From an archaeon (GTDB lineage Archaea > Asgardarchaeota > Thorarchaeia > Thorarchaeales > Thorarchaeaceae), in NCBI GenBank assembly GCA_024275415.1, contig JAJRZD010000012.1:1-32000 (forward strand): a stretch of 32,000 nt of DNA, in the 5' to 3' direction. The stretch's first letter is position 1. Each line of letters starts with the position of its first letter. A program made the translations under genes and the position numbers. Positions 11,931 through 31,660 of this stretch are shown in pieces. The notes under the pieces are model-generated. The model was not told where the DNA came from, did no database searches, and worked only from the letters and a program-made list of their open reading frames with translations.

Positions 11931-12905
11931 ATGATAAAGACGAGAGTAACTGAGATTCTGGGATGCAAATACCCGATCATAGCAGGAACCATGGCAAGGA
12001 TATCCAACCCAGAGTTTGTTGCTGCTGCAAGCAATGCTGGTGCTTGTGCTGTACTGGCCAGTGCCAACTATAAGACACCTGATGACCTGCGTGATGCGAT
12101 CAAGAAAACACAGTCGCTTACAGACCAGCCATTTGCAGTCAACATCAACTTGTTCCCAGCCTTGATGCCTCAAGACAAGTTGGAGGACTATGTGGACGCC
12201 ACATTGTCCGAGGGTGTCAAAATCATTGAAACAAGTGGACACAAAGCTCCAGAGGACTTGGTTCCCAAATTCAGAGATGGTGGTGCAATCTGGATCCACA
12301 AATGTGCTGGAGTCAGATATGCTATGAAAGGAGCGTCCTTGGGTGCGGATATGATAACTGTTGTTGGATACGAGAATGGCGGGGCCACCGGTAGATTGGA
12401 CATAGGAACGATGGTGATGACGCCATCCGTGGTCGATGCGGTGGATGTTCCAGTGATTGCTGGCGGGGGTATATCAGATGGGAGAGGCGTTGCTGCGATC
12501 TTAGCGCTTGGTGCCGAAGGAGTGATCATGGGCACACGGATGATGGCGACAAAAGAATGTCCTATCCACGACAATCTTAAACAAGCCTTTGTCAATGCCG
12601 CTGAAACAGATACATGTCTGGCTCTGCGGTCTGTCAAAAACACCCATAGGGTGTGGAACAACAAGGCGGCACAACACTTGATCGAACTGGAATCCCAGGG
12701 AGCACCATTGTTCAAGCTCATTCAAGCGGCAGCAGGAGATAAAGCAGAAGAGATGTACAGGAATGGGGACATTGACCTAGGTGTTGTGAGTTGTGGTCAA
12801 GGTGTAGGGCTGGTCAGAGACATTCCCACTGTCAAGGAGCTGTTAGATAGGATAATGGTAGAGGCTGAAGAGGTCATCTCTCGATTGTCCGAAATATCCA
12901 ATTAG
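11931..12905 (+). CDS. Nitronate monooxygenase / FabK-family FMN-dependent oxidoreductase
   Basis: LGCKYPIIAGTM, PFAVNI, VPVIAGGGISDGRG.AA.LALGAEGVIMGTR motifs of the NMO/enoyl-reductase II family. Confidence 0.9.
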   Translation: MIKTRVTEILGCKYPIIAGTMARISNPEFVAAASNAGACAVLASANYKTPDDLRDAIKKTQSLTDQPFAVNINLFPALMPQDKLEDYVDATLSEGVKIIETSGHKAPEDLVPKFRDGGAIWIHKCAGVRYAMKGASLGADMITVVGYENGGATGRLDIGTMVMTPSVVDAVDVPVIAGGGISDGRGVAAILALGAEGVIMGTRMMATKECPIHDNLKQAFVNAAETDTCLALRSVKNTHRVWNNKAAQHLIELESQGAPLFKLIQAAAGDKAEEMYRNGDIDLGVVSCGQGVGLVRDIPTVKELLDRIMVEAEEVISRLSEISN

Positions 12906-13010
12906 ATTCATCTCACATCTGCTATCTCAGGAAGGCTACTAGAAGACATCCTCGTAATCGGGAAGTTGTGAAAGCACAAACGTCGAGGACTTCTCTGGGA
13001 AGCATCGACA

Positions 13011-13020
13011 ATTTAAGGAA
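13011..13020 (+). promoter_or_regulatory. TATA-like element of the thiolase gene (probably leaderless mRNA)
   Basis: ATTTAAGGAA begins 29 nt upstream of ATG 13040, the spacing expected if transcription starts at or near the ATG. Confidence 0.45.
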
Positions 13021-13039
13021 GGACTGCACCTGCTAGGGC

Positions 13040-14254
13040 ATGAAAGAGGTCGTTATCGTTTCAGCAGTGAGAAGCCCAATCGGAGCTTTTGGTGGATCAC
13101 TCAAGTCCATCCAGGCCCCAGAACTTGCGGCTCAAGTGATGAAAGCAGCAGTACAACAAGCAGACGTAGACCCTCACATCATTGGGGATGTGCGGTTCGG
13201 ATGCTGTTTGGAACCGCCAAAGGCGCTGAATGTCGCAAGGGTTTCAATGCTCTTAGCCAATATCCCCTATACTGTCCCAGCAGTCACAATCAATAGAGTA
13301 TGCACTTCTGCTATGGAGGCGATAGTCAGTGGCTCCCTGCAGATTGAAACTGGGTTCACTGAGGTCGTGCTTGCAGGTGGCGTGGAGTCCATGTCGAATG
13401 TGCCCTACTGTGTGGAAGATGCCCGATGGGGATTACGCCTTTTCGACAAGACCTTCGTGGATATGTTGACGACAGGATTACATGCCGGAAGTCACTACAT
13501 CCCCCATCCTGATACGGGCAAGCCATACATCATGGGCGAAACCGCGGAATTCCTCAACGAGAAACATGGCTTCACTCGTGAGGAGCAGGACGAGGTGGCA
13601 TTACGCTCTCACAACAATGCAGAGCGAGCCACAAAGAATGGCGACTTCAAGGACGAGATTGTCCCCATCGAGGTTCCAAGTAGGAAAGGCGATGTCACAA
13701 TCGTTGACGAGGACGAACACTTCAGGCCCGGGTTGACAATGGAGGACTTGGCGAAGCTCCGTCCTGCCTTCAAGAAGGGTGGCTCAGTCACAGCAGGCAA
13801 CTCCAGTGGTATTAATGATGGCGCGGCGGCTGTTGTATTGATGTCCATGGAGAAAGCAAATGAGTTGGGTATCAAGCCTCTTGCCAAACTCACAGGCTAT
13901 GGGATGGGGGGCAGTGAACCTCATCTCATGGGCGAGTCACCAATCCCTGCCGTCGAGAATCTCATCGAGCGGACTTCGGAAACCTTCGACGACTGGGATC
14001 TTGTCGAGGTGAACGAGGCATTCGCAAGCCAGTATCTTGCAGTCGAAAAGGCACTCAAACCAATCGGTTTCGACAGGGAGAAAACTAACGTGAACGGGTC
14101 GGGTATCGGTCTAGGTCATCCGGTCGGAGCGACAGGAGCACGCATCATCGTGACGCTACTGCACGCCCTCAAGAAAAGGAATCTCAAACGGGGCATGGCC
14201 ACCCTCTGCGGTGGTGGTGGTGTGAGCATCGCTACATCATGGGAAATGATGTAG
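13040..14254 (+). CDS. Acetyl-CoA C-acyltransferase (thiolase, bacterial-type)
   Basis: INRVCTSAMEA (Cys nucleophile), GGVESMS, NSSGINDGAAA, EVNEAFA, GHPVGATGARI and TLCGGGG. Confidence 0.96.
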   Translation: MKEVVIVSAVRSPIGAFGGSLKSIQAPELAAQVMKAAVQQADVDPHIIGDVRFGCCLEPPKALNVARVSMLLANIPYTVPAVTINRVCTSAMEAIVSGSLQIETGFTEVVLAGGVESMSNVPYCVEDARWGLRLFDKTFVDMLTTGLHAGSHYIPHPDTGKPYIMGETAEFLNEKHGFTREEQDEVALRSHNNAERATKNGDFKDEIVPIEVPSRKGDVTIVDEDEHFRPGLTMEDLAKLRPAFKKGGSVTAGNSSGINDGAAAVVLMSMEKANELGIKPLAKLTGYGMGGSEPHLMGESPIPAVENLIERTSETFDDWDLVEVNEAFASQYLAVEKALKPIGFDREKTNVNGSGIGLGHPVGATGARIIVTLLHALKKRNLKRGMATLCGGGGVSIATSWEMM

Positions 14255-14284
14255 AAAAAAATGGTGAGGGGTAATTCCCTCACC
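14255..14284 (-). terminator. Hairpin plus T-tract terminator (minus strand; possibly bidirectional)
   Basis: GGTGAGGG-gtaatt-CCCTCACC (8 bp, 14263-14284) with A7 at 14255-14261, which reads as U7 after the hairpin on the minus strand. Confidence 0.7.
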
Positions 14285-14520
14285 TATCTTCGAAACCGAT
14301 AGATTAGGACAACAAACACTACTACAACAGCCAACCCTCCCACAGTGATTGCAAAGGAAAGTATCAGCATGAGGTTCGCCAGTTGGAGTGGTAGAATTCG
14401 TTGGGGGTGTCGATGAGGCTTCAGGTGTGACTGTGATAGTCACAGAATCTACCGCAATATTCCCAGATTCATCATCGGTTATCAGAACACTATCATTTAC
14501 ATGATGTCCGACGAAAAACA
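14284..14520 (-). pseudogene. Frameshifted relic of a surface-protein C-terminus (Ig-repeat end, Thr/Pro linker, TM anchor)
   Basis: DESGNIAVDSVTITVTPEASSTPPTNSTTPTGE, then after a one-base frameshift LMLILSFAITVGGLAVVVVFVVLIYRFRR* (TAG at 14284-14286). It parallels DKSGNTVSDSVLVTVTP...TM-KSKR of the upstream giant gene. Confidence 0.75.
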
Positions 14521-14734
14521 AATCACAGTCTTGGGCATGAAGTAAGAGTCAAGCCTTCGTCGTTAAGAACGAGTACATTAATCGTTGATATTGCTTCTAT
14601 GAGTTAGCATATTACTCTACAGAGCCCATTTCTGGAGTGCTGGAAGATGAATTATCCTCTGGAGAATAACTTCGTTCCAACAGATCCAGTGTCACATCAT
14701 AGGCGAATCAAAGAATCTTACGGATGGATGGCTG

Positions 14735-14766
14735 AAAAAGAAAGATGTGGAGGGAAAAATCCCTCC
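14735..14766 (-). terminator. Hairpin plus T-rich terminator of the giant surface-protein gene
   Basis: GGAGGGA-aaaa-TCCCTCC (14749-14766), followed on the minus strand by TCTTTCTTTTT, starting 27 nt after the stop codon. Confidence 0.65.
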
Positions 14767-14793: not shown

Positions 14794-17700
14794 TCATCTT
14801 TTTGATTTGATGAAGAGGATTATCACCACAATAATCACTATGATAGAACCAATAGTGATTACAATCGTGATGACCAGCGGGCCATCGACAGGTGGTGGTA
14901 ATGTGGTATCGGTGCCTGTCGGGGTCACTGTCACCAGCACGCTATCGGAAACAGTGTTGCCACTTTTGTCGTACACGACTACAGTGAAATTGTAAGTACC
15001 CACTTCAAGTCCGTCCACATCGACCACAATCTCATCCGATGTAGAATCTAGTTTCCCTGTCGTATACGGTGTTCCGTTCTGCAACACGACATAGTTGGAC
15101 GGATTGAGATCCGTAGTAGTCCAAGTGATTGTGTTACCCGTTGTTCCTTCGACGTAGGACATGTCAGCAGGACTATTAACCGTTGGTGGGGTCACGTCGA
15201 GGACATCAACCCAGACCGTGCTGACAACTGTATTGCCGTAGCTATCACTTAGGACAAGTGTGAAGTTATATGTACCAAAGGCAAGTTCTCCAACACTGTA
15301 GGAGAACGTGAGAGGGCTCTCCCAAGTAAAGTTCGCCAAGACAGTCCCGTTTCTGTACAATGTCAGTAAGTTGGGATTCATATCAGTCGCAGACCATACC
15401 AGTGTCGGTCCAGTTTCTCCTTCGTTGAAGGACGTATCTGTAGGTTCATCTACGACCGGAGCATCTACATCTCCGAATACTGAAACAATCACGGAGTGTG
15501 ACCCGGCGTTCCCTGTCCCATCGTATGCGACAAGAGTGTAGTTGTAGACTCCGACATCAAGACTATCTAGCGATAGATAGAACACCTCGCCAGATGCATT
15601 CCAGACGCCAGTAGTAATACGTGAGCCGTTGAGGAGAACCTCGTAGGTAGCCGGATACGAGTCCGTCAAGGTCCAGTTTATCTCATGGCCTGACTCACCA
15701 AATTCGAAGGTGATGTCAGTAGAGCCTGTGACTACTGGAGGAGTGATATCTTCCACGGAAACCATGACTGTATCACGGTCGGAATTTCCAATCGTGTCAT
15801 TCACTACCAGAGTGTAGTTGTAGGTGCCAACAGATAGTCCGTCTACATTTACTGTGATCGAGCTGCCGTCCCATGGGCCCATATCGACAATCACGCCGTT
15901 ACGGTACAGTGTGTAATTGGATGGAAACATGGCATCGGGGTTCCATACAATCTGATTTCCAGTGGCTCCTTCAGGATAGCTGATGTCAGCCGGAGAATCA
16001 ATCGTTGGTGCTTGGTAGGTGACAGTGACCAACGTGGTAAAGGACGCAGAGTTGCCATATGCGTCCTCCGCATAGAGTGTGTAGTTGTGAATGCCTAGAA
16101 ACAGCCCATCGATACTGATTGTTGTCTTGTTTGATAGGTCAGACCAAACTTGATGGGTTGTCCTGACATCATCCACCCACATCTCAAGGACAGAGGGATA
16201 CAGACTTCCGGCAATCCATGTCAAGTTATGTCCCATCGACAAATACACATACTCGTAACTATCAATACCCCAGATGACTGGGGGCTGGCTTGGCGGTGAC
16301 GCTCCACCAGCAGTGAACACCGCGTCTGAACGGTCTTCATCTGTCATGCCTCGATCGACTGCAACAACTCTCACCAAATAGGTGTCCATGTACTGCCAAT
16401 CTGAAGTATTCCAGACCAAGTTCGAGTCTGATATCCCTGACGCGACCAGCATGAAAGACACACCACCATCGTTTGAAACGTAGACATCATGCAATGGCTG
16501 CGAATCGCTATTCTGAGAAGTAGTAGTCCATGTAATGCTGTGAGAAGTTGTCCATACTTCGCCGCCGTTCGGAGATGTTACAAGTACTTCAGGGGCAAAG
16601 AAGTTGTTGAAGGTGATATTACTCCAGCTTCCACTGTACTCGCTGCCGCTGAGAGTATATGCTGTAGCAATTATATCACGTGTGGAGCTTGATCCCAAAT
16701 TTGAGGTGTCGTACCATGCTGACCGCCCAGCAGAATTGACTTCAACGCCCGTCCGTGTATCTACTGTGAGTGTGTACTGAGCACCAATGGTACGGTCATA
16801 GTTGAAAATGCCAATAGCAAGTCTACCATCTCGATCCGCGGTGAAAGAGGTTGCTTCCGGTTTAGCAGCGGTTGCCATTTTGCTTCCAACCAGATTGTTG
16901 CTATATGACCAAGTAGTGTTGTCAGTGTCAGCCCACCACACCATGATGTCAGAGTCGCCGTTAGTAAAGTCCACAGTAATCTGTACAATGTCATCCTTCA
17001 TGATGCCATCAACAAACTCCCAGCTTAATTGCGTAAGATCGATGTAGCCAGAGAATGGGTCGTATGCAGCATCTGGTTCTACTATGGTACCACTGTTCTG
17101 ATAAAGAATTCCAGAAAGCAGTTCCAGTTTGACAGTGTTGATTTCAGATTCAGGGAAATTGCTAGCTCCTACAGGAGAGAACGTCACGTTCACAACAATA
17201 TGGTCGCCATCAATCACATCATTGTCAGTGAATGGAGTTGGAGTCATGTTCCAATTTGAGTAGTACCTTGGGTCAGGGACTGGTGTTGCAATGTTCTCGT
17301 ATATCATGACATTGATAGTGTAATTGACTGGTAAGGTCACCGATCCAGCAAGTTCCGTGGGATGAACGAGTAGGTAATACATCCCGACTGGATCAGCTGG
17401 AAGTGACACCATTACCACTGTAGCGTTTGATGTGGTAGCAACGGCTGATGATAGAACCGTTCCATTGGCATCAAGAACATCCAGACTCATATTGTTACCA
17501 AGAATGTCCCATACGACTCTCACACCCATATATTGCACGGTCGGGTATGGATTGAACAGAGCATAACTTCTGAAATCCCAGTCGTCAACATCTCCTTCCA
17601 TACAGCCATATACAGGACTGTCATATGGAGTCAACTCATTGCCAAATCCGCTGACTATTCTATTCTCGTCGCCAATATTTGCTGAAAGATTGCCAATGAT

Positions 17701-20700
17701 GCTGAAACTCCAAGGCACTGTCAGGGTTGTGGCACCATCACTGATTTCCACGTACCCCTGATAGATGCCAGCATCATCTTGTGGGGCGTCCAACTGCCAG
17801 ATGTAGGTTGCAGCAACACCCCCATCAGTTGCAGAAAGTATTGAAGTAGGAACCTTTTCCCAGAAGATGACCGTGCATGTGAACGGATTACCTACGTATG
17901 CCAGGTCGCTATCAAATGCAGGGTCATGAACCACAAGTGTTAGGTTACCGCTCATAGCAGCAGACAAGCTTCCACTATTTGTAGCATAGGACATCATATT
18001 CGAGTTCGAGGGATCGTAGGCACTTGCAAGCCGCACTAGCTCGTTACCTTCGGCAGTTGTGGAGTTCCAAAGATTCGGCATTCCATCATTCGGGCTCCCA
18101 TCGGTCCAGTCATAAAGGAATGACCATGGAGCACCATACGTGCTGATGTTAGCGTTATCAAAAGAAATCCCAATGGTGACATAGCTATACGTAGAAACCA
18201 GCGAGTCATAAGTGGTTGTTCCAATCTGATCTCTAATGTTGTACCAGCCATACATCTGAGCTCCGGGCACGACAGTATCAGTGTATGTAAAAGTCGTGGC
18301 AGAGAAAGAGATTGATTCTGCTTTCCTCCAATAATATGCAGATGTCGTCCAACCGGTAGTATCGGTGATCAATGTGCCTGACGCAGTTCCATAGATGTTC
18401 TGTGAGATGGTTGTCACTGAGCCGGGTACTACCTGTCCGAAGTATAAGGAGCCTTCAGCAAACCCTCTTGGAAGATTGCCTGTAGGAAACGGCGTGGGCA
18501 GTAACGAGCGGGCGGATCCAATATCTGAAGCCCAAGCACCCTCAGATATGCTCATCAGGTTATCAAAAGAGTCTGTCGATTCTGCAATCAGTCCAACGTC
18601 ATTCTCAACAAAATCGCACGCAGCCTGAGCATCGATTCTTCCGAATCCTTCAGTGGCAGGATCATAGCCCAGTCGTTTGGCCGTGTTTTGTATTATTGTC
18701 TTCACACGGTCAGGAGTCCAAGATACGCCTCGCGTGTTCAGGGATTCAATGACTAGTGCAGCTACTCCAGCTGCTACAGGAGCCGATTGGCTCGTTCCGC
18801 TAAACAGTGAAACATTGAGTTGTGAGCCATAATCCATCTTTGAACCGACCCAATATTGATGCAGGTATGGAGCATAGACAGGTCTGGGTGCGTAAGCTGC
18901 TAGCCCCGGTGCAACAACATCAGGTTTGGAATAGCCCAAGAACGAAGGCCCTTTGCTTGAGAAGGGTGCAATCCCTTCAACATCTTGCCCTGGTCCATAA
19001 AGATACTCGAGATATTGGTAGCTTGTGGACGCTCCCACTGTCAGAACTCCAGCAGCAGACCCAGGTGGCCCAATAGTCATAAAGCCCGAACCCTCATTCC
19101 CTGCCGAGAACACTTGGAGTACACCCGGATAGGATGGGTCGAGGTATCCAGGGGTAGATAGTATTGTCCAGACCAGCGATAGATAATCCAATTCGCTGCT
19201 AGGAGCAACAACCCATCCCCAAGAGTTGGTTACAAGATCCGCTTGATGGTTGCCAGTGTAATAGAAGTCACCACTCTGTTCATTGTAATCAAATCCACAA
19301 GCCCAAAGGTATGCCCCCATCTCTGTACCTGACGACAGCGAACGTATAGACAGTATTTTGGATCTATTCGCAACTCCGGACATATAGAAGTAGGAATCAT
19401 TGTTTGGATCGTAATATTGGTAATTACCACGACTGGCAACATGAGCTGCCGTAGCGGTTCCATGTGTGTCGGCGTCAAAATACAGACTGACAGCCGCGCC
19501 ATCCGAACGGAACCCGTTGAAGACAGTTTCATCAGCAAACCAACCATAAACGTCATAGAGCCAACTGATAGCCCCCAGACTATAATCATTGATTCCGTCG
19601 CCGTTCAAGTCAGCAGCCACAATGGGGTTTGTGTAATTGTAGGTGGCAACGCTGATGTCATCAGTGAAGTCCCAGTCGGATAAGTCGAGAATGGGCTGAT
19701 AGTCAGCTGGATCTGTAAGGTTGACACTTTCATAGTAGAAGCCTCCATTCCAGAACCAAGACCAAGCTTCAGCTCCTTCCCAGTCGATTGCAAGATTCCA
19801 TTCGTTTGTTGTCGATGAGTTGTATACCAATGCAGGAGCGAATGCCTTCATGTAAGGACTATTTCTTTGTTGGAAGATGAAGCCAACCCGATAGTCACCT
19901 ATCAGTTCAGAAGTGTCTGGCAGTTTGATGTCCTGCCATATATCATCTGCCATAGTCCCTACATCAATACCCCAATAATAGGCGTACAACCAGATAAAGC
20001 CAAGACGATTGACATAGGGGGTCGTTTTATTTCCATCTCCGATTAGATATCTGGAACTGCCTTGGTTATTCAGCAGTGGATCCCACCCTGTGACATTAAG
20101 ATAAACACCGCTGGCATTCTGATAGGTCAAGACATTCCCGTTAGCTACCCATGATGCAGGGTCTGCTACGTAGGATGAATTGGCAAGTACCAGTGGATTC
20201 AAACCCAGTCCCGTCGGGTCATATGTGCCATTGTCATATGCATCCATCAGGTCAGGGACACCAAAGTCACACCCTGTGTCTATATGTCCAACTACGACAC
20301 CTTCACCGGTATAGCCAGACGCTACCGACCCTGTGGAGCCTACAATAGCACGGATCTCGGACATGTCCAATGAATACTCAGGTGATTGTGTCCCATCAAA
20401 ATCCGGCTTTGCAAATTCATCAACTCTGGGTGAGGTCAGCTTGTCAGCCCAAATCGCAGTCACACCGTTCAAATCGATGATTTTCCTTAGCGATTCTGCT
20501 GAGGGTAGTTCCACCTTGACCAACTTGAAGGCTTTGAAGTCCATTTTCCATTTTATATCTGCCAGTCCATCTAGTGTTTCCATGTCCGCCCATGGTGCAG
20601 AGTATATCAGGGCACCTGGGTTTCCATCGACGAGAGAGATTGAACTATCGATTGTCCCATCTGTAAGCCATGTTTCGAATAACGGATCAATATCGGGTCT

Positions 20701-22530
20701 GAAATCAGGTTCTGACCATGTGTCCCATAAGATCTTTGTAGTATCTTCGACTTCTTGAAGTGGGGAGTCACTAGACCCGGTGGATGTTGGCTCCGAGGCA
20801 GTCGGGCTCACGAACGATTCTAACTGTGGCCCTCCATGTCCAGAGAGTCCTCGGAAATAGTAAGGATTGCGTGTGAGCTCGATATATGAGCCTTGGACAT
20901 AATCAGAGATATAGTATGGCCCCGATGTCACCATACGTTCTGCCAGAGGATCGGGATCCCATGTATTCCACCCATCAGTCCCGATGTCCTTAAAGTAATG
21001 TTTGGGAATTATGGGCAACTCCGCAAACGACGAGAGATGCCAATATGACTCGGTGTCAAATTCCACTACGAGTTTGTAATCTTGGGGAGCATAGGCAGCA
21101 TATACTTCTTGCAGGTCTTCGTAGAATGGATTCCCGGAAGCCTCACGATAGTAGTTATATGAAAAGGCAATATCTTGAGCGGTAAGAGGGACTCCATCTA
21201 TCCATGTGGCATTTCGTACAATATTAAATGTAAACCGTGTATGGTTTACAGGAACCTCTGGGTTGTCAGCATGCGTTTCAGTGATATAGCTCTCACAAAG
21301 CCAGTTCATTAGATTACCATCAGGATCTCTACGCAGGAGTGGATCATAAAGCTCATTGAGAACATTCCTCGTATATTCACTGGAGGTGGTCATGAAGTTG
21401 AAGGTATCTACATCAAGCGGAGTACTCCAACGGAAGGTTCCCCCATATGGACCACCGGACTGACTTTGCAATCTGACTTTCTGATTAGTCCACCATGAAG
21501 GAATGCCTTTCACTGCGTCGTTGACATGTCCTTCAAATGCATCATTACGATAAGCAGAAACAATCTGGTTCTCATAACAAATGACCATCGGACTCTCATA
21601 TACCCAGATTCTTTGCATTTCAATTGCAGCCTCATAGACCTTATCGTAGTCAGTTGAGTGGAGCAGCTGGTCGCGCCATGCGTCATAGGAGGCATTCCTA
21701 AAGTTCGGGAAGTTGTAATATGGCTCATCAGCATATTCTGACCAGTACTCGTATGCCAGCCAGTCTACATCAAAATCAGGAAAGGTCATGCCCAAGAAGG
21801 CCATATCATAGTCATCATGGAAATAAAGTCGATTCACGTAGTCGTAGAAATCGGTAAGTATGGATGTCGCATTGACTGATATTGCAACTAGGGAGTCTGC
21901 TGCTTTCTGACCAATATTTATTGCAACACTCGATGATGATGCAACCTCAATTCGAACGTTAAAGTCTGAACCGTCGGGAGCTTCCCTGATGCCATCAGAA
22001 TCGATATCTAGGAACCCAGCTGCATCAAGTAGCTGATTCGCCTTTGCTAAATCAGCCGTGTAATAGTTATATGATAGTTGCCCTTCAATCGAAAACGGAT
22101 TGACTTGGGCAACTACACTGTCCTGCGGTACAGCCAGTCCATTCCATACATCAGTAGTGATTGCTTGTTTGTCCAGAGCAAAGGCAAATGCTCGTCTGAA
22201 AGAAGTTATATTGAATGGATATTTGGCCGTATTGATAGTGAGATAGCCATAACCATTTCGAAGATACGTTGATGTATCTATATCTGTAGCTGCAGACAGT
22301 GTATCTAGAAACACCGGGTCTACACTATCACCAATCAGATCAATCTCGTTGTCCAGAAGTGCAAGTACCTGCTGGTCATCTTGTGCAATCACTTTGAACA
22401 AGAGCGTGTCAACATACGGACCTGCACCATCATAGTATCCTGCGGCGCTGACACCGGGTAAGGTGCCCATGCCAGAACTCAGTATCATTACCAGTACAAA
22501 ACATATTGATACAATTACTTTACGTACCAA
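14794..22530 (-). CDS. 2578-aa cell-surface protein: signal peptide, family-5 solute-binding domain, S8 serine peptidase, PPC-like domains, Ig-like repeats and C-terminal TM anchor
   Basis: Sec-type signal (..VSA/A) and SBP_5 motifs. Catalytic residues: D751 (GHIDTG), H1023 (THGTATA), N1145 (SAGNEG) and S1247 (SGTSQSAP). PPC-like DSDIMVW...PEATSFTA..DGRLAIGIFNY, six Ig-like units, and a hydrophobic C-terminal helix followed by KSKR. TTG start. Confidence 0.92.
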   Translation of the reverse strand: MVRKVIVSICFVLVMILSSGMGTLPGVSAAGYYDGAGPYVDTLLFKVIAQDDQQVLALLDNEIDLIGDSVDPVFLDTLSAATDIDTSTYLRNGYGYLTINTAKYPFNITSFRRAFAFALDKQAITTDVWNGLAVPQDSVVAQVNPFSIEGQLSYNYYTADLAKANQLLDAAGFLDIDSDGIREAPDGSDFNVRIEVASSSSVAINIGQKAADSLVAISVNATSILTDFYDYVNRLYFHDDYDMAFLGMTFPDFDVDWLAYEYWSEYADEPYYNFPNFRNASYDAWRDQLLHSTDYDKVYEAAIEMQRIWVYESPMVICYENQIVSAYRNDAFEGHVNDAVKGIPSWWTNQKVRLQSQSGGPYGGTFRWSTPLDVDTFNFMTTSSEYTRNVLNELYDPLLRRDPDGNLMNWLCESYITETHADNPEVPVNHTRFTFNIVRNATWIDGVPLTAQDIAFSYNYYREASGNPFYEDLQEVYAAYAPQDYKLVVEFDTESYWHLSSFAELPIIPKHYFKDIGTDGWNTWDPDPLAERMVTSGPYYISDYVQGSYIELTRNPYYFRGLSGHGGPQLESFVSPTASEPTSTGSSDSPLQEVEDTTKILWDTWSEPDFRPDIDPLFETWLTDGTIDSSISLVDGNPGALIYSAPWADMETLDGLADIKWKMDFKAFKLVKVELPSAESLRKIIDLNGVTAIWADKLTSPRVDEFAKPDFDGTQSPEYSLDMSEIRAIVGSTGSVASGYTGEGVVVGHIDTGCDFGVPDLMDAYDNGTYDPTGLGLNPLVLANSSYVADPASWVANGNVLTYQNASGVYLNVTGWDPLLNNQGSSRYLIGDGNKTTPYVNRLGFIWLYAYYWGIDVGTMADDIWQDIKLPDTSELIGDYRVGFIFQQRNSPYMKAFAPALVYNSSTTNEWNLAIDWEGAEAWSWFWNGGFYYESVNLTDPADYQPILDLSDWDFTDDISVATYNYTNPIVAADLNGDGINDYSLGAISWLYDVYGWFADETVFNGFRSDGAAVSLYFDADTHGTATAAHVASRGNYQYYDPNNDSYFYMSGVANRSKILSIRSLSSGTEMGAYLWACGFDYNEQSGDFYYTGNHQADLVTNSWGWVVAPSSELDYLSLVWTILSTPGYLDPSYPGVLQVFSAGNEGSGFMTIGPPGSAAGVLTVGASTSYQYLEYLYGPGQDVEGIAPFSSKGPSFLGYSKPDVVAPGLAAYAPRPVYAPYLHQYWVGSKMDYGSQLNVSLFSGTSQSAPVAAGVAALVIESLNTRGVSWTPDRVKTIIQNTAKRLGYDPATEGFGRIDAQAACDFVENDVGLIAESTDSFDNLMSISEGAWASDIGSARSLLPTPFPTGNLPRGFAEGSLYFGQVVPGSVTTISQNIYGTASGTLITDTTGWTTSAYYWRKAESISFSATTFTYTDTVVPGAQMYGWYNIRDQIGTTTYDSLVSTYSYVTIGISFDNANISTYGAPWSFLYDWTDGSPNDGMPNLWNSTTAEGNELVRLASAYDPSNSNMMSYATNSGSLSAAMSGNLTLVVHDPAFDSDLAYVGNPFTCTVIFWEKVPTSILSATDGGVAATYIWQLDAPQDDAGIYQGYVEISDGATTLTVPWSFSIIGNLSANIGDENRIVSGFGNELTPYDSPVYGCMEGDVDDWDFRSYALFNPYPTVQYMGVRVVWDILGNNMSLDVLDANGTVLSSAVATTSNATVVMVSLPADPVGMYYLLVHPTELAGSVTLPVNYTINVMIYENIATPVPDPRYYSNWNMTPTPFTDNDVIDGDHIVVNVTFSPVGASNFPESEINTVKLELLSGILYQNSGTIVEPDAAYDPFSGYIDLTQLSWEFVDGIMKDDIVQITVDFTNGDSDIMVWWADTDNTTWSYSNNLVGSKMATAAKPEATSFTADRDGRLAIGIFNYDRTIGAQYTLTVDTRTGVEVNSAGRSAWYDTSNLGSSSTRDIIATAYTLSGSEYSGSWSNITFNNFFAPEVLVTSPNGGEVWTTSHSITWTTTSQNSDSQPLHDVYVSNDGGVSFMLVASGISDSNLVWNTSDWQYMDTYLVRVVAVDRGMTDEDRSDAVFTAGGASPPSQPPVIWGIDSYEYVYLSMGHNLTWIAGSLYPSVLEMWVDDVRTTHQVWSDLSNKTTISIDGLFLGIHNYTLYAEDAYGNSASFTTLVTVTYQAPTIDSPADISYPEGATGNQIVWNPDAMFPSNYTLYRNGVIVDMGPWDGSSITVNVDGLSVGTYNYTLVVNDTIGNSDRDTVMVSVEDITPPVVTGSTDITFEFGESGHEINWTLTDSYPATYEVLLNGSRITTGVWNASGEVFYLSLDSLDVGVYNYTLVAYDGTGNAGSHSVIVSVFGDVDAPVVDEPTDTSFNEGETGPTLVWSATDMNPNLLTLYRNGTVLANFTWESPLTFSYSVGELAFGTYNFTLVLSDSYGNTVVSTVWVDVLDVTPPTVNSPADMSYVEGTTGNTITWTTTDLNPSNYVVLQNGTPYTTGKLDSTSDEIVVDVDGLEVGTYNFTVVVYDKSGNTVSDSVLVTVTPTGTDTTLPPPVDGPLVITIVITIGSIIVIIVVIILFIKSKR
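14920..16290 (-). repeat. Five tandem ~90-aa Ig-like (P.I..P.D....G.....I.W...G.YNYTL...D..GN...D.V.V.V) repeats
   Basis: Units begin QPPVIWG, QAPTIDSPAD, ITPPVVTGSTD, DAPVVDEPTD and VTPPTVNSPAD at about 270-nt spacing. They are diverged at the nucleotide level. An SPNGGE-type Ig domain precedes them at about 16305-16600. Confidence 0.85.
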
Positions 22531-22796
22531 ACCGAACCCCTCGTCTATTTGAGTTTTTCATATTTAGACTATGTGCAGAAAGTCAACCAGTAATTTCTAT
22601 TTGGACTTAGTACGAGCGATTGCACATTAGAACGCAAACACCTCAACCCTTTACCACCATCGATTTTATGATATTCGATTGGACTTTCCACACGAGCCCT
22701 CATGCTTGAATGTAGATAAACCCTTCGCCTTTTTTGCTATGCACATTTTCTATTTCTATCGATATACATAACTATGATGAATGGGATTATCCAGCT

Positions 22797-28188: not shown

Positions 28189-31100
28189 TCATTCTTCGAC
28201 TAATTTTCCAAGATTCTGTTGCAGTACCTCTAATTCATAGTCTGAATGAGGATCAACTACAAAGCAGGACATGATGACTCGTTTCTCGCCAGATGGCATA
28301 ATCCGTGAATTGCCAATCACTCCAAGTATGGTCATGCTCTCGATCGCCAGACCCATGACACTCGGCCTTGCATCCGAGTGAACCAATGCAAGACCTTCAC
28401 TCACTCCATCATCACCCTCATTATGTATCCACAGGATATTGTTTTGAGGCATGGACATGGATGGCATACCCATCTGATAGTGGTCTGTCATACGACCGCC
28501 GACCTCTGCACGGAATGCGGTATTTGGTAGTCCCCCGTTGAACCCTGGATCAACCACAAAAGAAGGCGCTGCTCCTAATGGTGATTCCGTGGTATTATCG
28601 ACAATCCACCTAGTCAGCACAAGGGGACATCCTGGGAGCGTGAGATACTGGACACTCATCCGTACACCACGTGTGGATTGCTGCTTGGTTCCAACCCACG
28701 AGATTTCAACTCCTTTCCACACTCCTACTGCAACAGGTTTCCCTTCCATGGTTTCCTTGTTCGTGAGAGCATTGGTGAGTTCCTCGTCGAAGGATTGATC
28801 CCATATAATTGGCTGTATCCCTCCATAGTAATTACTGAGAAATCCTCCTGGTCTTGCCTCAGCGGTGGGAAACGTCGAGATTAAGAGTTCAGTGCCTCTG
28901 GCATTCTTCAACGAGTAAAGACATCCTCCATACTCGTGCGAAACCTTGAACTCAATGACACCATTCTTCACTAGGTAGCTCTTGAGTCCTTGGTCTTCAA
29001 TCTGAGTTATCGCGACCTCTCCTTTTGATGTGCCAAGTCCAAGTATGTGAAGGGGAAATTCTTGATCGGTAAAGCCTCTCAGACGAACCGTTCCTTCTTG
29101 GACGAAAAAACCTCCATCCTTGTTAGCCCTTTGTGAAACACTGACAATGAATTCCTGAGAGTCTTGAAGAACCTGATTCTCTAGTCGGTTCGTCTTCGCC
29201 CCTTGGGCGCCATCTTCGCTTATCTGAAGCGTTGCCTCCCACCCTTCAGGGACAGTGACCTCGATATCCACAGGCAAGGGAATCTCTATCGCCTTGTTGA
29301 AGGTCACCTTTGCTGTCGCATCTGACCCGTTATGAGAGATGGCGGAATCAACTGATAGGTCGATGATGCCATGCGTTTCTGGTGCTGGGCGGTATGACAT
29401 GTCGGGGTATTCCTTCGCCACTCTCGACTGCCATATCGTTTGTATCGAGAGCCAATCAGGCTCTCCAAAAGCCATCCCAATCTGTGAAATCATGCGTCTT
29501 TCTTTCGGGGCAAGTTTCACATGAGGGTACTGGAGCATATTGAGCTGGTTGGTTCCAATTCGAATCTCCTCAACACTGTCCTTGTCCCAGAATTGCCCTT
29601 TTGTCGAACGCCGACTTGAGATTGCAATCCATCCTTCACTGAATGCACTGGGAGAGGATGAGATAGCAGGGTATCCGTACGCCATCTTGACGGTAGAGTC
29701 AACAATGATTCGTTCCTTCAATGGAAGAACTTTGGTTCCTGTGGTGAAACCGATACCAGTTCCCCCACCATAAACACGAAGTTGGAAATCATGAGATTCG
29801 TCACCTGTATTTGTTACCCATACCTGATGAATAATGATACCTGTGCCGTATTCGAATATGACACGATCCTCAACTGTGAGGGGGCGTTCTGGATGCTCTC
29901 CGACCATTGTGAGAACAAGAGATTCTTTCTCAAAGGACTCGTGAATCTCACGAGGAGCGAATCGAAATGAGTCGAGCCCAAAAGGAGGACCAATCTGAGA
30001 CCGCAGCTGAAAGGCACCTGCAAAGAGATCCTCGGAATCGTTGGCTGTAAGGATACCCCCCTCATAACTTGCTGATGCAAAGTACTTGCTTGTAGCAACT
30101 ACCTTCCTCAGCCGAATCTCATCATCGCTAATAGCGACAGTACCATTCTCAAGACAGTAGATGGGGAACCGGAACCTTCGAGTGCTCAATGACAGGTCGC
30201 GAGGCCCCTCCAACTCCAAGTGCATAAGCAATTCATGAGTACCACTGGGCAGTGATGGCGAAGCATGCGCCACAATCGTCGCCCCAGAGATGCCCTCGGG
30301 CTGGACTGTGATATCCACTGATGAGGGCTGCACCTTGATCAGGTCGGTCGAGCTTTCAATAACAAGCCTTCCTGATATCGGGAAACTAGCAGAGCTGATG
30401 ATGGAAAGGGGGAGTGTCGTGTCACCACCAGCAGCAATCCGACTGTGTCTTGCGACGTTTCTAATTTCGGCAGCCGGCTTGATGACGAGACCCGTACGCA
30501 ACAAGGATTTTGTTCCACCGAGTTCGACCTCTGTATCAATTGTAGGAGTCCTGAGATTTCTTCTGTGGATTGGGGCATCCGAAGAAACTGTGAAGGGAAC
30601 CTCCCATACCGTTTCGCTGCTCGCCTTGACGACAAGCCTTTGCTTGGTGGTCTTATCAAAATGGATTGCATCAATACTGGAGATGCTCACTCCAATCTCG
30701 ATGTCATCATGTGTGTCGTTCTCTATCTTTAGGAAGTACTTCGAGGGCACACCGCAGAGAACAATGTGATCTAGTACACTACAGCGTACCGCAATCCTAG
30801 CACCATCAACGATTCTGTCAATGGCCGTGATATGACGGGAGTGTTTATCGACGACGACCGATAGCACATTGTCTTCGTACATGAAACGATAGGGGAATAT
30901 CTCCATGCCGTCCTCCTTGAAGTCGTCGGGTGCTTGCACGATATCGCGCTGGAGGACATCATACCATATCAGATGTTCAGGGAGTGTGTCGAAGAAAGGC
31001 TTAGTGAGAGGGTGTTCAAGGATGCCAGGAATATAGCTTTCCATCTGGACTCCATCACCGGTAGGATTCCACATCATCCCCACTTTCTTGTAGAGTGGTA

Positions 31101-31497
31101 CAGCCCGCATGTTCCCGGGCCATGTGTTGAGATCAACCCGAGTCTTACCATGTTGCTGAGAAATCTCGATTGCTCGCAAGAGGAGCTTCTTGCCTACTTT
31201 TTTGTTCAATGCTTCAGGGGAAACGCCAAGAGTGCCGACATATGCTGCATCATTGTCCCTCCAGTGGTGATGCAATGTGCAGGATCCTACTGGTTTGTTC
31301 GTGGCGGTGTCAATTGCGATGAGGATAGCTATGGCTGCCATCGTGCCAAATTGCTTCTTGATCCTATCCTCGTCGTAGGGGACGCCTTGAGTGTAACCTC
31401 CGGGCCAGAGGTCGTCCCAGCCATTGTACATTTCTGCAAGATCCTTTGCCAGATCGTCGGAATATTGGACTATGCGGATATCCTTCTGTTCACTCAT
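28189..31497 (-). CDS. ~1100-aa protein: N-terminal GNAT acetyltransferase fused to a large beta-rich region
   Basis: YVGTLGVSPEALNKKVGKKLL and WPGNMRAVPLYKKVGM GNAT motifs in the first ~170 aa. The remainder is beta-rich with no signal peptide or TM segment. ATG 31497 preferred. Confidence 0.85.
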   Translation of the reverse strand: MSEQKDIRIVQYSDDLAKDLAEMYNGWDDLWPGGYTQGVPYDEDRIKKQFGTMAAIAILIAIDTATNKPVGSCTLHHHWRDNDAAYVGTLGVSPEALNKKVGKKLLLRAIEISQQHGKTRVDLNTWPGNMRAVPLYKKVGMMWNPTGDGVQMESYIPGILEHPLTKPFFDTLPEHLIWYDVLQRDIVQAPDDFKEDGMEIFPYRFMYEDNVLSVVVDKHSRHITAIDRIVDGARIAVRCSVLDHIVLCGVPSKYFLKIENDTHDDIEIGVSISSIDAIHFDKTTKQRLVVKASSETVWEVPFTVSSDAPIHRRNLRTPTIDTEVELGGTKSLLRTGLVIKPAAEIRNVARHSRIAAGGDTTLPLSIISSASFPISGRLVIESSTDLIKVQPSSVDITVQPEGISGATIVAHASPSLPSGTHELLMHLELEGPRDLSLSTRRFRFPIYCLENGTVAISDDEIRLRKVVATSKYFASASYEGGILTANDSEDLFAGAFQLRSQIGPPFGLDSFRFAPREIHESFEKESLVLTMVGEHPERPLTVEDRVIFEYGTGIIIHQVWVTNTGDESHDFQLRVYGGGTGIGFTTGTKVLPLKERIIVDSTVKMAYGYPAISSSPSAFSEGWIAISSRRSTKGQFWDKDSVEEIRIGTNQLNMLQYPHVKLAPKERRMISQIGMAFGEPDWLSIQTIWQSRVAKEYPDMSYRPAPETHGIIDLSVDSAISHNGSDATAKVTFNKAIEIPLPVDIEVTVPEGWEATLQISEDGAQGAKTNRLENQVLQDSQEFIVSVSQRANKDGGFFVQEGTVRLRGFTDQEFPLHILGLGTSKGEVAITQIEDQGLKSYLVKNGVIEFKVSHEYGGCLYSLKNARGTELLISTFPTAEARPGGFLSNYYGGIQPIIWDQSFDEELTNALTNKETMEGKPVAVGVWKGVEISWVGTKQQSTRGVRMSVQYLTLPGCPLVLTRWIVDNTTESPLGAAPSFVVDPGFNGGLPNTAFRAEVGGRMTDHYQMGMPSMSMPQNNILWIHNEGDDGVSEGLALVHSDARPSVMGLAIESMTILGVIGNSRIMPSGEKRVIMSCFVVDPHSDYELEVLQQNLGKLVEE

Positions 31498-31660
31498 GAT
31501 AGGTTGCACCATTCCCATTATCAAAGGGCTTTTGGTTCAAGCATGAACCACTGATAATGATGGATGGTCACCTGATATTACTCTTCTGAGCAAAAGTGAC
31601 CACTGCGATGGCGCTTGCAGTAAGAGTTATCCCCTGATGGTACTCTAAGTGTTCTGAGAG

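Follow-up and report, generated by a model that had tools for sequence, protein, structure and literature searches.

A predicted giant surface protein of Thorarchaeia joins a circularly permuted family-5 solute-binding protein to a subtilisin-like protease in one chain

The N-terminal domain of the envelope hydrolase MltF has the fold of a solute-binding protein (SBP). When muropeptides bind to this regulatory domain, the catalytic domain is opened allosterically (PMC10746161), and for Lactococcus the hand-over of peptides from a cell-envelope proteinase to the binding protein OppA has been discussed (PMC7783315). Both protein families considered in the present study are known already, as is the functional coupling of a surface protease to an SBP in trans. 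Here we describe a gene in which an SBP and a protease of the S8 (subtilisin) family are encoded as a single chain. It is located in a 32,000-nucleotide stretch of DNA (hereafter the window; positions 1 to 32,000 of contig JAJRZD010000012.1, NCBI GenBank assembly GCA_024275415.1) from the metagenome-assembled genome (MAG) of an uncultured Asgard archaeon of the Thorarchaeia, designated G000, which comprises 3.5 Mb in 127 contigs and is 93% complete, with 4.5% estimated contamination. An earlier reading of the sequence (hereafter the original prediction) regarded the architecture as uncharacterised, and the literature that we searched, incomplete in its coverage, contained neither a protein combining SBP_bac_5 with Peptidase_S8 nor an Asgard SBP-subtilisin fusion. 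The single-chain architecture, the location of an SBP upstream of a protease prodomain, and the permuted SBP family itself are apparently undescribed.

The gene occupies positions 14794-22530 of the reverse strand and is, as originally predicted, one open reading frame of 2578 codons, with a TTG start and no internal stop codons. It encodes, in this order, a signal peptide, a family-5 SBP, a Ser/Thr-rich linker, an I9-like prodomain, an S8 catalytic domain, beta-sandwiches, six Ig-like units, and a transmembrane (TM) helix followed by the residues KSKR (Table 1). Much of this layout had been anticipated. The SBP, placed earlier at about amino acids (aa) 37-560, matches Pfam SBP_bac_5 in two stretches with 182.3 bits against a cut-off of 32.4, and the protease matches Peptidase_S8 with 118 bits against a cut-off of 21.8. 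The proposed signal peptide is borne out by translation from the TTG codon and by the N-termini of orthologues, and the proposed anchor with its basic tail by the C-terminal TM helix and KSKR. The six Ig-like units correspond to one unit followed by five repeats of ~90 aa beginning at aa 2083, 2173, 2263, 2356, and 2447, with matches to the Ig-like Pfam families K319L-like_PKD, Big_3_3, and Big_13 spanning aa 2220-2540. The description of two sandwiches as PPC-like stood only in part: beta-sandwich domains are present in the structural model, where they are also covered by the VIA alignments to Vpr, cucumisin, SBT3, and C5a peptidase, but neither Pfam PPC nor Pfam PA gave a match in the query or in 25 family members.

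The fusion is not confined to one assembly. Ten database proteins (1627-2849 aa), labelled Thorarchaeota, contain both Pfam domains and are collinear over residues 1-1320 with 44-70% identity, and three of them come from assemblies that are independent of one another (NCBI MAGs in two cases, a Logan assembly in the third), where they reside in unrelated gene neighbourhoods. A six-frame search of 87 Thorarchaeia species genomes identified the fusion in about eight of them, representing about seven genera: it is complete and in a single open frame in G000, G003, G004, G075, G077, and G081, is present twice in tandem in G008, and appears as a contig-end fragment in G073. An assembly chimera or a split gene, for which the original prediction had proposed a check through homologues sharing the junction, was rejected, since the same junction is found in independent NCBI and Logan assemblies and in at least seven other genomes. 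When the ten fused SBP heads were placed in a tree together with outgroups and 78 stand-alone relatives, they grouped as a single clade (SH-aLRT 99), which fits one fusion event. The architecture is real, conserved, and selected.

The SBP head is circularly permuted, a feature left unstated in the original prediction, which had correctly given the family and its position. Residues 31-266 of the protein align with positions 139-364 of the Pfam profile, and residues 414-574 with positions 9-152. Sixty PDB relatives of the head were found at E <= 0.001, and in alignments to PDB entries the two halves are exchanged likewise (residues 95-321 of the query fall on TM1223 268-502, and residues 364-547 on 21-188), as they are in a search of the family profile against solved SBPs. 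The AlphaFold2 model of aa 25-620 forms a single compact body (pLDDT 91.9, pTM 0.85; pLDDT >90 in the first half), and its residues 6-332 superpose on chain residues ~185-520 of AppA, DppA, TM1223, and CBP with VIA Z of 26-28.6; this structural support concerns the first half of the head, the order of the second half being taken from sequence alignment. Judging from the model, the compact two-lobe fold appears to be kept with a changed connectivity. The new N-terminus lies at the segment that normally follows the '...NPxYW' strand and the new C-terminus is that strand itself, so that the chain enters and exits at the hinge, and the native family-5 termini are bridged by residues ~340-365.

The permutation is a trait of the lineage and is not specific to the fusion gene. 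Five circularly permuted family-5 SBPs (Table 1) and three canonical ones (on contigs C77, C21, and C10) are encoded in G000. The permuted form is near-universal in Thorarchaeia: of 65 genomes sampled from the same family as G000, 61 encode it. At E <= 1e-30, the head is matched by 276 cluster representatives, and among the matches listed nearly all are collinear over the entire head. Collinear permuted copies with 28-33% identity are also found in at least three other Asgard families. No published description of a permuted family-5 SBP, or of circular permutation in archaeal SBPs, was found in the searched, incomplete literature. On Thorarchaeota-type metagenome contigs, one or several SBP5 modules are embedded in giant proteins (P0166, 4308 aa, with multiple SBPs; P0253, 6240 aa; P0026, 2427 aa; P0275, 1590 aa), where permuted and canonical modules are located amid Ig/PKD domains or follow a concanavalin A-like domain (Laminin_G_3). 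Because such modules have been built into several giant surface proteins, this lineage seems to reuse the SBP as a binding module at the cell surface.

The head shows no sign of decay. Among 78 stand-alone relatives, 119 columns are at least 95% conserved, and the protein analysed here keeps 117 of them, other fusions keeping 105-111; the leave-one-out mean for the stand-alone proteins at these columns is 97.7%. Identity to the most distant orthologues is 56-58% for the head, compared with 32-34% for the protease region. Given both the retained columns and the better conservation of the head, a degenerate binding pocket, which had been named earlier as a finding that would speak against the digest-and-capture reading, is very unlikely on sequence grounds, and the head is under purifying selection at least as strong as that acting on the protease.

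The closest paralogue of the head in G000 is a 638-aa protein encoded on contig C42 (P0045; 68% identity over aa 37-562). Its gene adjoins OppC-, OppB-, and OppC-like permease genes, with two genes encoding OppD/F-type ATPases with an oligo_HPY domain oriented divergently, and this type of Opp operon is syntenic in three other assemblies. The head derives from the cognate SBP of the Opp/Dpp-type ABC importer of the lineage. Stand-alone permuted SBPs (P0045, P0046, P0078, and P0129) share with the fused head 55-68% identity across its length, the same permutation, and the same conserved columns. They differ in their size (~610 aa), in having their own C-terminal TM anchor, and in being encoded in OppDF / OppC-B-(C)-SBP operons, and the fused heads form a clade separate from them, marked by four specific replacements. 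These are found in nearly all fusions (D407 to L/I/W/Y, H500 to S/T/P, K505 to L/V/I/T, and E548 to S/T/N) at positions that are polar-conserved in the stand-alone SBPs and lie in the second half of the head (window about 20887-21312). The replacements could mark a new interface or a changed pocket.

As regards the composition of these operons, the G000 locus on C42 (L004; 7076-11667, reverse strand, and 12432-14589, forward strand), as well as loci L010 and L012, contains one OppB-like permease gene and two OppC-like ones, which encode proteins of ~525 aa extended considerably at the N-terminus, making three in total. In the C42-type operon, OppD/F are encoded divergently, and locus L011 has just one OppC-like gene.

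The protease module is intact. The residues D751, H1023, N1145, and S1247, assigned earlier as the catalytic residues of an S8 enzyme, are invariant columns in an alignment with 25 relatives and follow the canonical D-H-N-S order; the protease is apparently active, as predicted from these residues. A model of aa 590-1760 (pLDDT 82.4, pTM 0.87) was compared with solved subtilases, and the catalytic fold gave VIA Z of 26-38 (38.4 to Vpr, 29 to KP-43 and Tk-SP). Residues 47-721 of the model are covered by unprocessed pro-Tk-subtilisin (338-349 residues matched) and residues 133-721 by mature Tk-subtilisin (277 matched), and the ProN-Tk-SP and Csp proteins also reach into the beta-alpha-beta-beta-alpha-beta unit at aa 636-700, which in the model occupies the place of the I9 propeptide. 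This assignment is a structural one, because Pfam Inhibitor_I9 gave no match in the query or across 25 members. The sequence IRAIVG...GYTGEGVVVGHIDTG at the junction resembles the N-terminus of a mature subtilisin. The catalytic domain contains a large Asp-His insert, and tripeptidyl peptidase II (TPPII) has a large insert at the same position; TPPII (3lxu) was also among the sequence matches (E 4.7e-10). Pyrolysin-like and cell-envelope proteinases are marked by a PA domain or another characteristic insert position and by PPC-type C-terminal domains; in the fusion, the large insert separates Asp from His, beta-sandwich domains are present, and neither PA nor PPC gave a Pfam match. About a dozen S8 loci are present in G000 in total, including a second S8 protease gene (965 aa; G000:C110:52518-55415, forward strand) located ~30 kb away on the same contig.

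Proteins corresponding to the protease part alone (~1580-1700 aa, matching from about residue 570 on) are widespread in MAGs labelled Thor-, Loki-, and Hodarchaeota. These relatives (P0012-P0025, and a G000 paralogue on contig C1 that is 42% identical over aa 601-2075) are similar to the fusion, with 42-57% identity from the linker and I9-like unit through the catalytic domain and sandwiches. They share its 271-aa Asp-His insert and its TM-plus-basic-tail anchor, terminating in a Ser/Thr-rich linker, a TM helix, and a basic tail, but lack both the SBP head and the five-repeat stalk. Since their I9-like unit directly follows the signal peptide, the SBP was inserted upstream of the pro-region. 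The product of the fusion gene is a Sec-exported subtilase precursor, held by its C-terminal TM helix and raised on the stalk. Compared with the protease-only form (~1600 aa), the fusion adds a five-repeat Ig-like stalk, as well as a complete permuted SBP head between the signal peptide and the I9-like prodomain. The type of stalk repeat recurs in other G000 surface proteins, including a 989-aa stalked SBP encoded on contig C24. In two genomes, the fusion gene itself adjoins a gene encoding a stalked SBP of 1146-1260 aa, and one genome has the fusion gene twice in tandem (L001 6353-9793, forward strand; G075:C50:23935-25554; G008:C59).

We tentatively favour, with a rough probability of 0.4, the reading that the SBP is a capture head working with the surface protease in feeding, with hand-over to an Opp/Dpp permease. 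The protease would digest polymers at the cell surface, and the head, as a working ligand-binding module, would capture small oligomers, possibly peptides, made or exposed there and pass them to an Opp/Dpp permease encoded in trans. To do so, the head would either remain uncleaved or be retained through a prodomain that is still bound after autoprocessing, and the whole protein would represent a cis-linked version of the lactococcal PrtP and OppA feeding system. The location of the closest head paralogue in an OppC-OppB-OppC / OppD-OppF locus argues for capture. Distance from the membrane would be a weak objection to hand-over, because long SBP stalks are normal in Thorarchaeia, in which stalked stand-alone SBPs (1000-1350 aa, with stalks of 400-700 aa) are common. 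Thorarchaeota show abundant transcripts of genes that serve the breakdown of proteins and peptides, and capture would fit the protein-degrading lifestyle inferred for them (bioRxiv 10.1101/374165).

Several observations weigh against capture and hand-over. The fusion is an accessory trait, present in a minority of genomes. Permease genes are absent near the fusion gene in all four loci (its own and three orthologous ones), and the entire 86.8-kb contig (C110) contains no match to BPD_transp_1 or ABC_tran, which extends the earlier statement that no ABC permease or ATPase gene lies within 14 kb downstream and 9 kb upstream; orphan SBPs that share a transporter are known. Subtilase prodomains are normally cleaved off and then degraded. 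With the SBP located N-terminal to the I9-like prodomain, maturation may sever the head, and the standard process would cut between aa 700 and ~740, freeing an unanchored SBP-prodomain fragment. Of the 'physically coupled' proteolysis and capture proposed earlier, the presence of both modules in one chain stands, but the I9-like prodomain between head and enzyme makes the coupling uncertain. The replacements at D407, H500, K505, and E548 could also reflect a lost permease-docking surface.

The remaining difficulties concern the ligand. The term 'peptide-binding' in the original prediction was assumed from the family name and is not supported, since the residues with which DppA-type proteins grip peptide termini are not conserved. 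In an hhalign comparison of the family profile with E. coli DppA (MG1655 record), D436, which binds the peptide alpha-amino group (precursor numbering as in PDB entry 8z1z; D408 in the mature protein), corresponds to Pro251, in a column occupied by T/N/S/G in 88 sequences; this result is stable to a shift of one residue either way and is compatible with peptide binding through other residues. The carboxylate-binding R383 of DppA (R355 in the mature protein) has no counterpart in the family alignment. The top solved relatives by sequence bind chito- or manno-oligosaccharides: Vibrio chitooligosaccharide binders (9e-35) and TM1223 (6e-30) are followed by the nonapeptide binder AppA (3e-29). By structure, Foldseek and VIA place peptide, sugar, nickel, and opine binders within ~2 Z units of one another and thus do not discriminate the ligand class. 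The operon context of the stand-alone relatives was also considered as a guide to ligand class and was rejected, as the surroundings contain, apart from small genes of unknown kind, only a conserved gene for a phosphoglucose-isomerase-like protein; no peptidase or glycosidase genes were found beside the stand-alone permuted SBP operons in the loci examined.

It is possible, although doubtful, that the head regulates the protease and feeds no transporter. Ligand-induced closure would then control prodomain release or access to the active site, and the enzyme would switch on only where substrate or product is present, in a manner similar to MltF, which provides a precedent for a hydrolase regulated by a binding domain (PMC10746161). 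Such control would suit a head linked to a prodomain placed as in pro-subtilisins and the absence of transporter genes nearby, and the charged-to-hydrophobic changes at D407 and K505, together with H500 and E548, fall in the chain-exit lobe, where they could mark a new intramolecular interface. However, head and prodomain are separated by 60-70 residues of low-confidence linker, which speaks against a tight mechanical connection, the head retains almost all constraints of its transporter-associated paralogues, and irreversible prodomain release would make a poor sensor. It is rather unlikely that the head serves, without hand-over to a transporter, as a lectin-like or carbohydrate-binding-module-like device holding the protease on a polymeric substrate, by binding glycan or peptide epitopes on, for example, cell walls, other cells, or glycoproteins of detritus: among its paralogues the head is nearest to a transporter SBP, the pockets of SBPs close around small free ligands and would accept polymer ends at best, and the residues W363, N409, and F411, through which the Vibrio chitin-binding protein contacts its ligand, are not kept in the head alignment. 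What speaks for targeting is the location of the head at the membrane-distal tip, the chitooligosaccharide and mannoside SBPs at the top of the sequence ranking, where by structure peptide binders score equally, and the use of the permuted module in giants lacking a transporter context (the 4308-aa multi-SBP protein, the 6240-aa protein, and a protein combining Laminin_G_3 with an SBP).

Capture of ligand for a permease, regulation of the protease, and release of the head with the pro-region are compatible and not mutually exclusive. A self-contained device that digests, senses, and captures, with the head docked through the retained I9-like prodomain and its closure both gating the protease and loading ligand for the permease, is unlikely; there, the permutation would shift the chain exit to the hinge, enabling the head to be wired to other Asgard surface modules. 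Less probable again is that the SBP is mere cargo of the pro-region, co-exported and co-folded with the protease and cut off with the prodomain, delivering one independent binding protein per activated protease. The I9-like prodomain between head and catalytic domain, followed by a disordered junction, would permit this, and the head has neither a lipobox nor its own TM helix, unlike the stand-alone relatives with their C-terminal TM anchor; yet an unanchored head would diffuse away in sediment pore water, and retention of the fusion across about seven genera with strong head conservation is hard to explain if the linkage were functionless. An artefact, whether an assembly chimera or a decaying functionless fusion, might be suspected in a MAG of 127 contigs with the contamination estimated here, for which a look-up listed no public sequencing run, but is extremely improbable in view of a frame open over 7.7 kb, purifying selection on both modules, and recurrence of the junction in separate assemblies.

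The TTG codon at 22530 is supported by sequence as a better start than the internal ATG, because a Shine-Dalgarno-like GAGGGG precedes it and because the N-termini of orthologues share with the TTG-started translation a signal-peptide pattern ending in ...VSAAG. The public protein record (P0002, 2558 aa) starts at the internal ATG, 20 codons later (window 22471-22530), and lacks the signal peptide. The terminator assigned to the gene in the original prediction corresponds to a hairpin with a T-rich tail, found by pattern matching; a scan with the terminator consensus found 4 sites against 0.4 expected. Neighbouring genes are of the housekeeping type and encode a CDC48-like ATPase, threonyl-tRNA synthetase, nitronate monooxygenase, thiolase, a pyridine-nucleotide disulphide oxidoreductase, an epimerase, and GNATs. 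Another open reading frame in the window (28189-31524, reverse strand; 1111 aa) has only an N-terminal GNAT acetyltransferase domain (aa 32-150) recognised, leaving ~950 residues without a Pfam match.

Table 1. Coordinates of the features of the fusion gene in the window, and of the permuted family-5 SBPs of G000
Feature	Position	Strand	Basis or remark
Shine-Dalgarno-like GAGGGG	22531..22545	-	7-12 nt 5' of TTG; read from sequence
Signal peptide, aa 1-29 (VRK, hydrophobic core, ...GVSA/AG)	22444..22530	-	Translation; same pattern in P0004, P0005, P0006
SBP head, first half, aa 31-356	21463..22440	-	Forms the C-terminal two-thirds in canonical family-5 SBPs (lobe 2 and the return to lobe 1)
SBP head, second half, aa 360-561	20848..21453	-	Forms the N-terminal third in canonical family-5 SBPs
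Ser/Thr/Pro-rich linker and short helices, aa 562-635	20626..20847	-	Low pLDDT in both models
I9-like prodomain, aa 636-700, beta-alpha-beta-beta-alpha-beta	20431..20625	-	Modelled secondary-structure order and superposition
Prodomain/catalytic junction, aa 701-741	20308..20430	-	Expected autoprocessing region (putative cleavage); pLDDT <50 at aa 712-721
S8 catalytic domain, aa 742-1296	18643..20307	-	Pfam; invariant D751, H1023, N1145, S1247; VIA match to subtilases
Asp-His insert, 271 aa, aa 752-1022	19465..20277	-	Folded in model, pLDDT ~90; kept in 25/25 relatives
Beta-sandwich domains after the catalytic domain, aa 1362-1744	17299..18447	-	Model; VIA alignments
Further beta-rich region, aa 1745-1977, including second PPC-like stretch	16600..17298	-	Sequence only; mostly outside the model
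Stalk: one Ig-like unit (aa 1978-2080) and five ~90-aa Ig-like repeats (aa 2083-2540)	14911..16599	-	Pfam; repeat starts
C-terminal TM anchor (aa 2551-2574) and basic tail KSKR	14797..14880	-	Sequence
Terminator-like hairpin and T-rich tail	14749..14766	-	28 nt past the stop codon; pattern match
Permuted family-5 SBP, contig C42	5067-6983	-	
Permuted family-5 SBP, contig C24	12542-15511	+	
Permuted family-5 SBP, contig C32	31055-32824	+	
Permuted family-5 SBP, contig C119	9065-11227	+	
Permuted family-5 SBP, head of the fusion (window)	20848-22440		

Sediment Asgard archaea are thought to live largely on detrital protein, and the few Asgard strains in culture do not, to our knowledge, include a Thorarchaeon. 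The fusion offers a concrete candidate case of extracellular digestion coupled to uptake, or of ligand-controlled proteolysis, whose fragments can be expressed. Beyond this gene, Thorarchaeia and some other Asgard families have, as their standard binding protein of the Opp/Dpp type, a family-5 fold that is circularly permuted by nature, and a permutant with one hinge crossing fewer bears on the mechanism of SBPs and on biosensor design. It also matters for annotation, since the permuted proteins are all labelled plainly as 'ABC transporter substrate-binding protein'.

Compared with solved family-5 SBPs (7ebm and 1zty from Vibrio; 4pft, TM1223; 1xoc, Bacillus subtilis AppA; 1dpp, E. coli DppA), both halves of the fold are recognisable in the head, but the solved proteins have the canonical order, show ~20% identity, and use ligand contacts that are not conserved here. 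With solved subtilases, including Vpr (8jmw), KP-43 (1wmd), Tk-SP (3afg), pro-Tk-subtilisin (2z2z), cucumisin/SBT3, and C5a peptidase, the fold, the prodomain position, and the trailing sandwiches align; these enzymes differ in their 20-30% identity and in lacking an SBP, and their structures do not cover the large Asp-His insert. MltF of Pseudomonas and E. coli similarly has a binding-protein-like N-terminal module that is fused to an envelope hydrolase and binds a product-like ligand (PMC10746161), although its SBP belongs to another family, its enzyme is a lytic transglycosylase, no prodomain intervenes, and the allostery demonstrated there is a hypothesis here. The Lactococcus lactis PrtP protein resembles the fusion in that it, too, is a large S8 protease anchored at the surface and has a prodomain, an insert in the catalytic domain, beta-sandwiches, and a spacer or stalk (PMC7783315), and in the PrtP/Opp system the family-5 SBP OppA collects the products for a PepT-type ABC importer, a counterpart of which we propose here by analogy. 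Lactococcus makes PrtP and OppA as two proteins, with an SBP of canonical chain order, whereas the Thorarchaeia protein, in which no PA domain was matched, unites a permuted SBP and the protease in one chain held by a TM-helix anchor.

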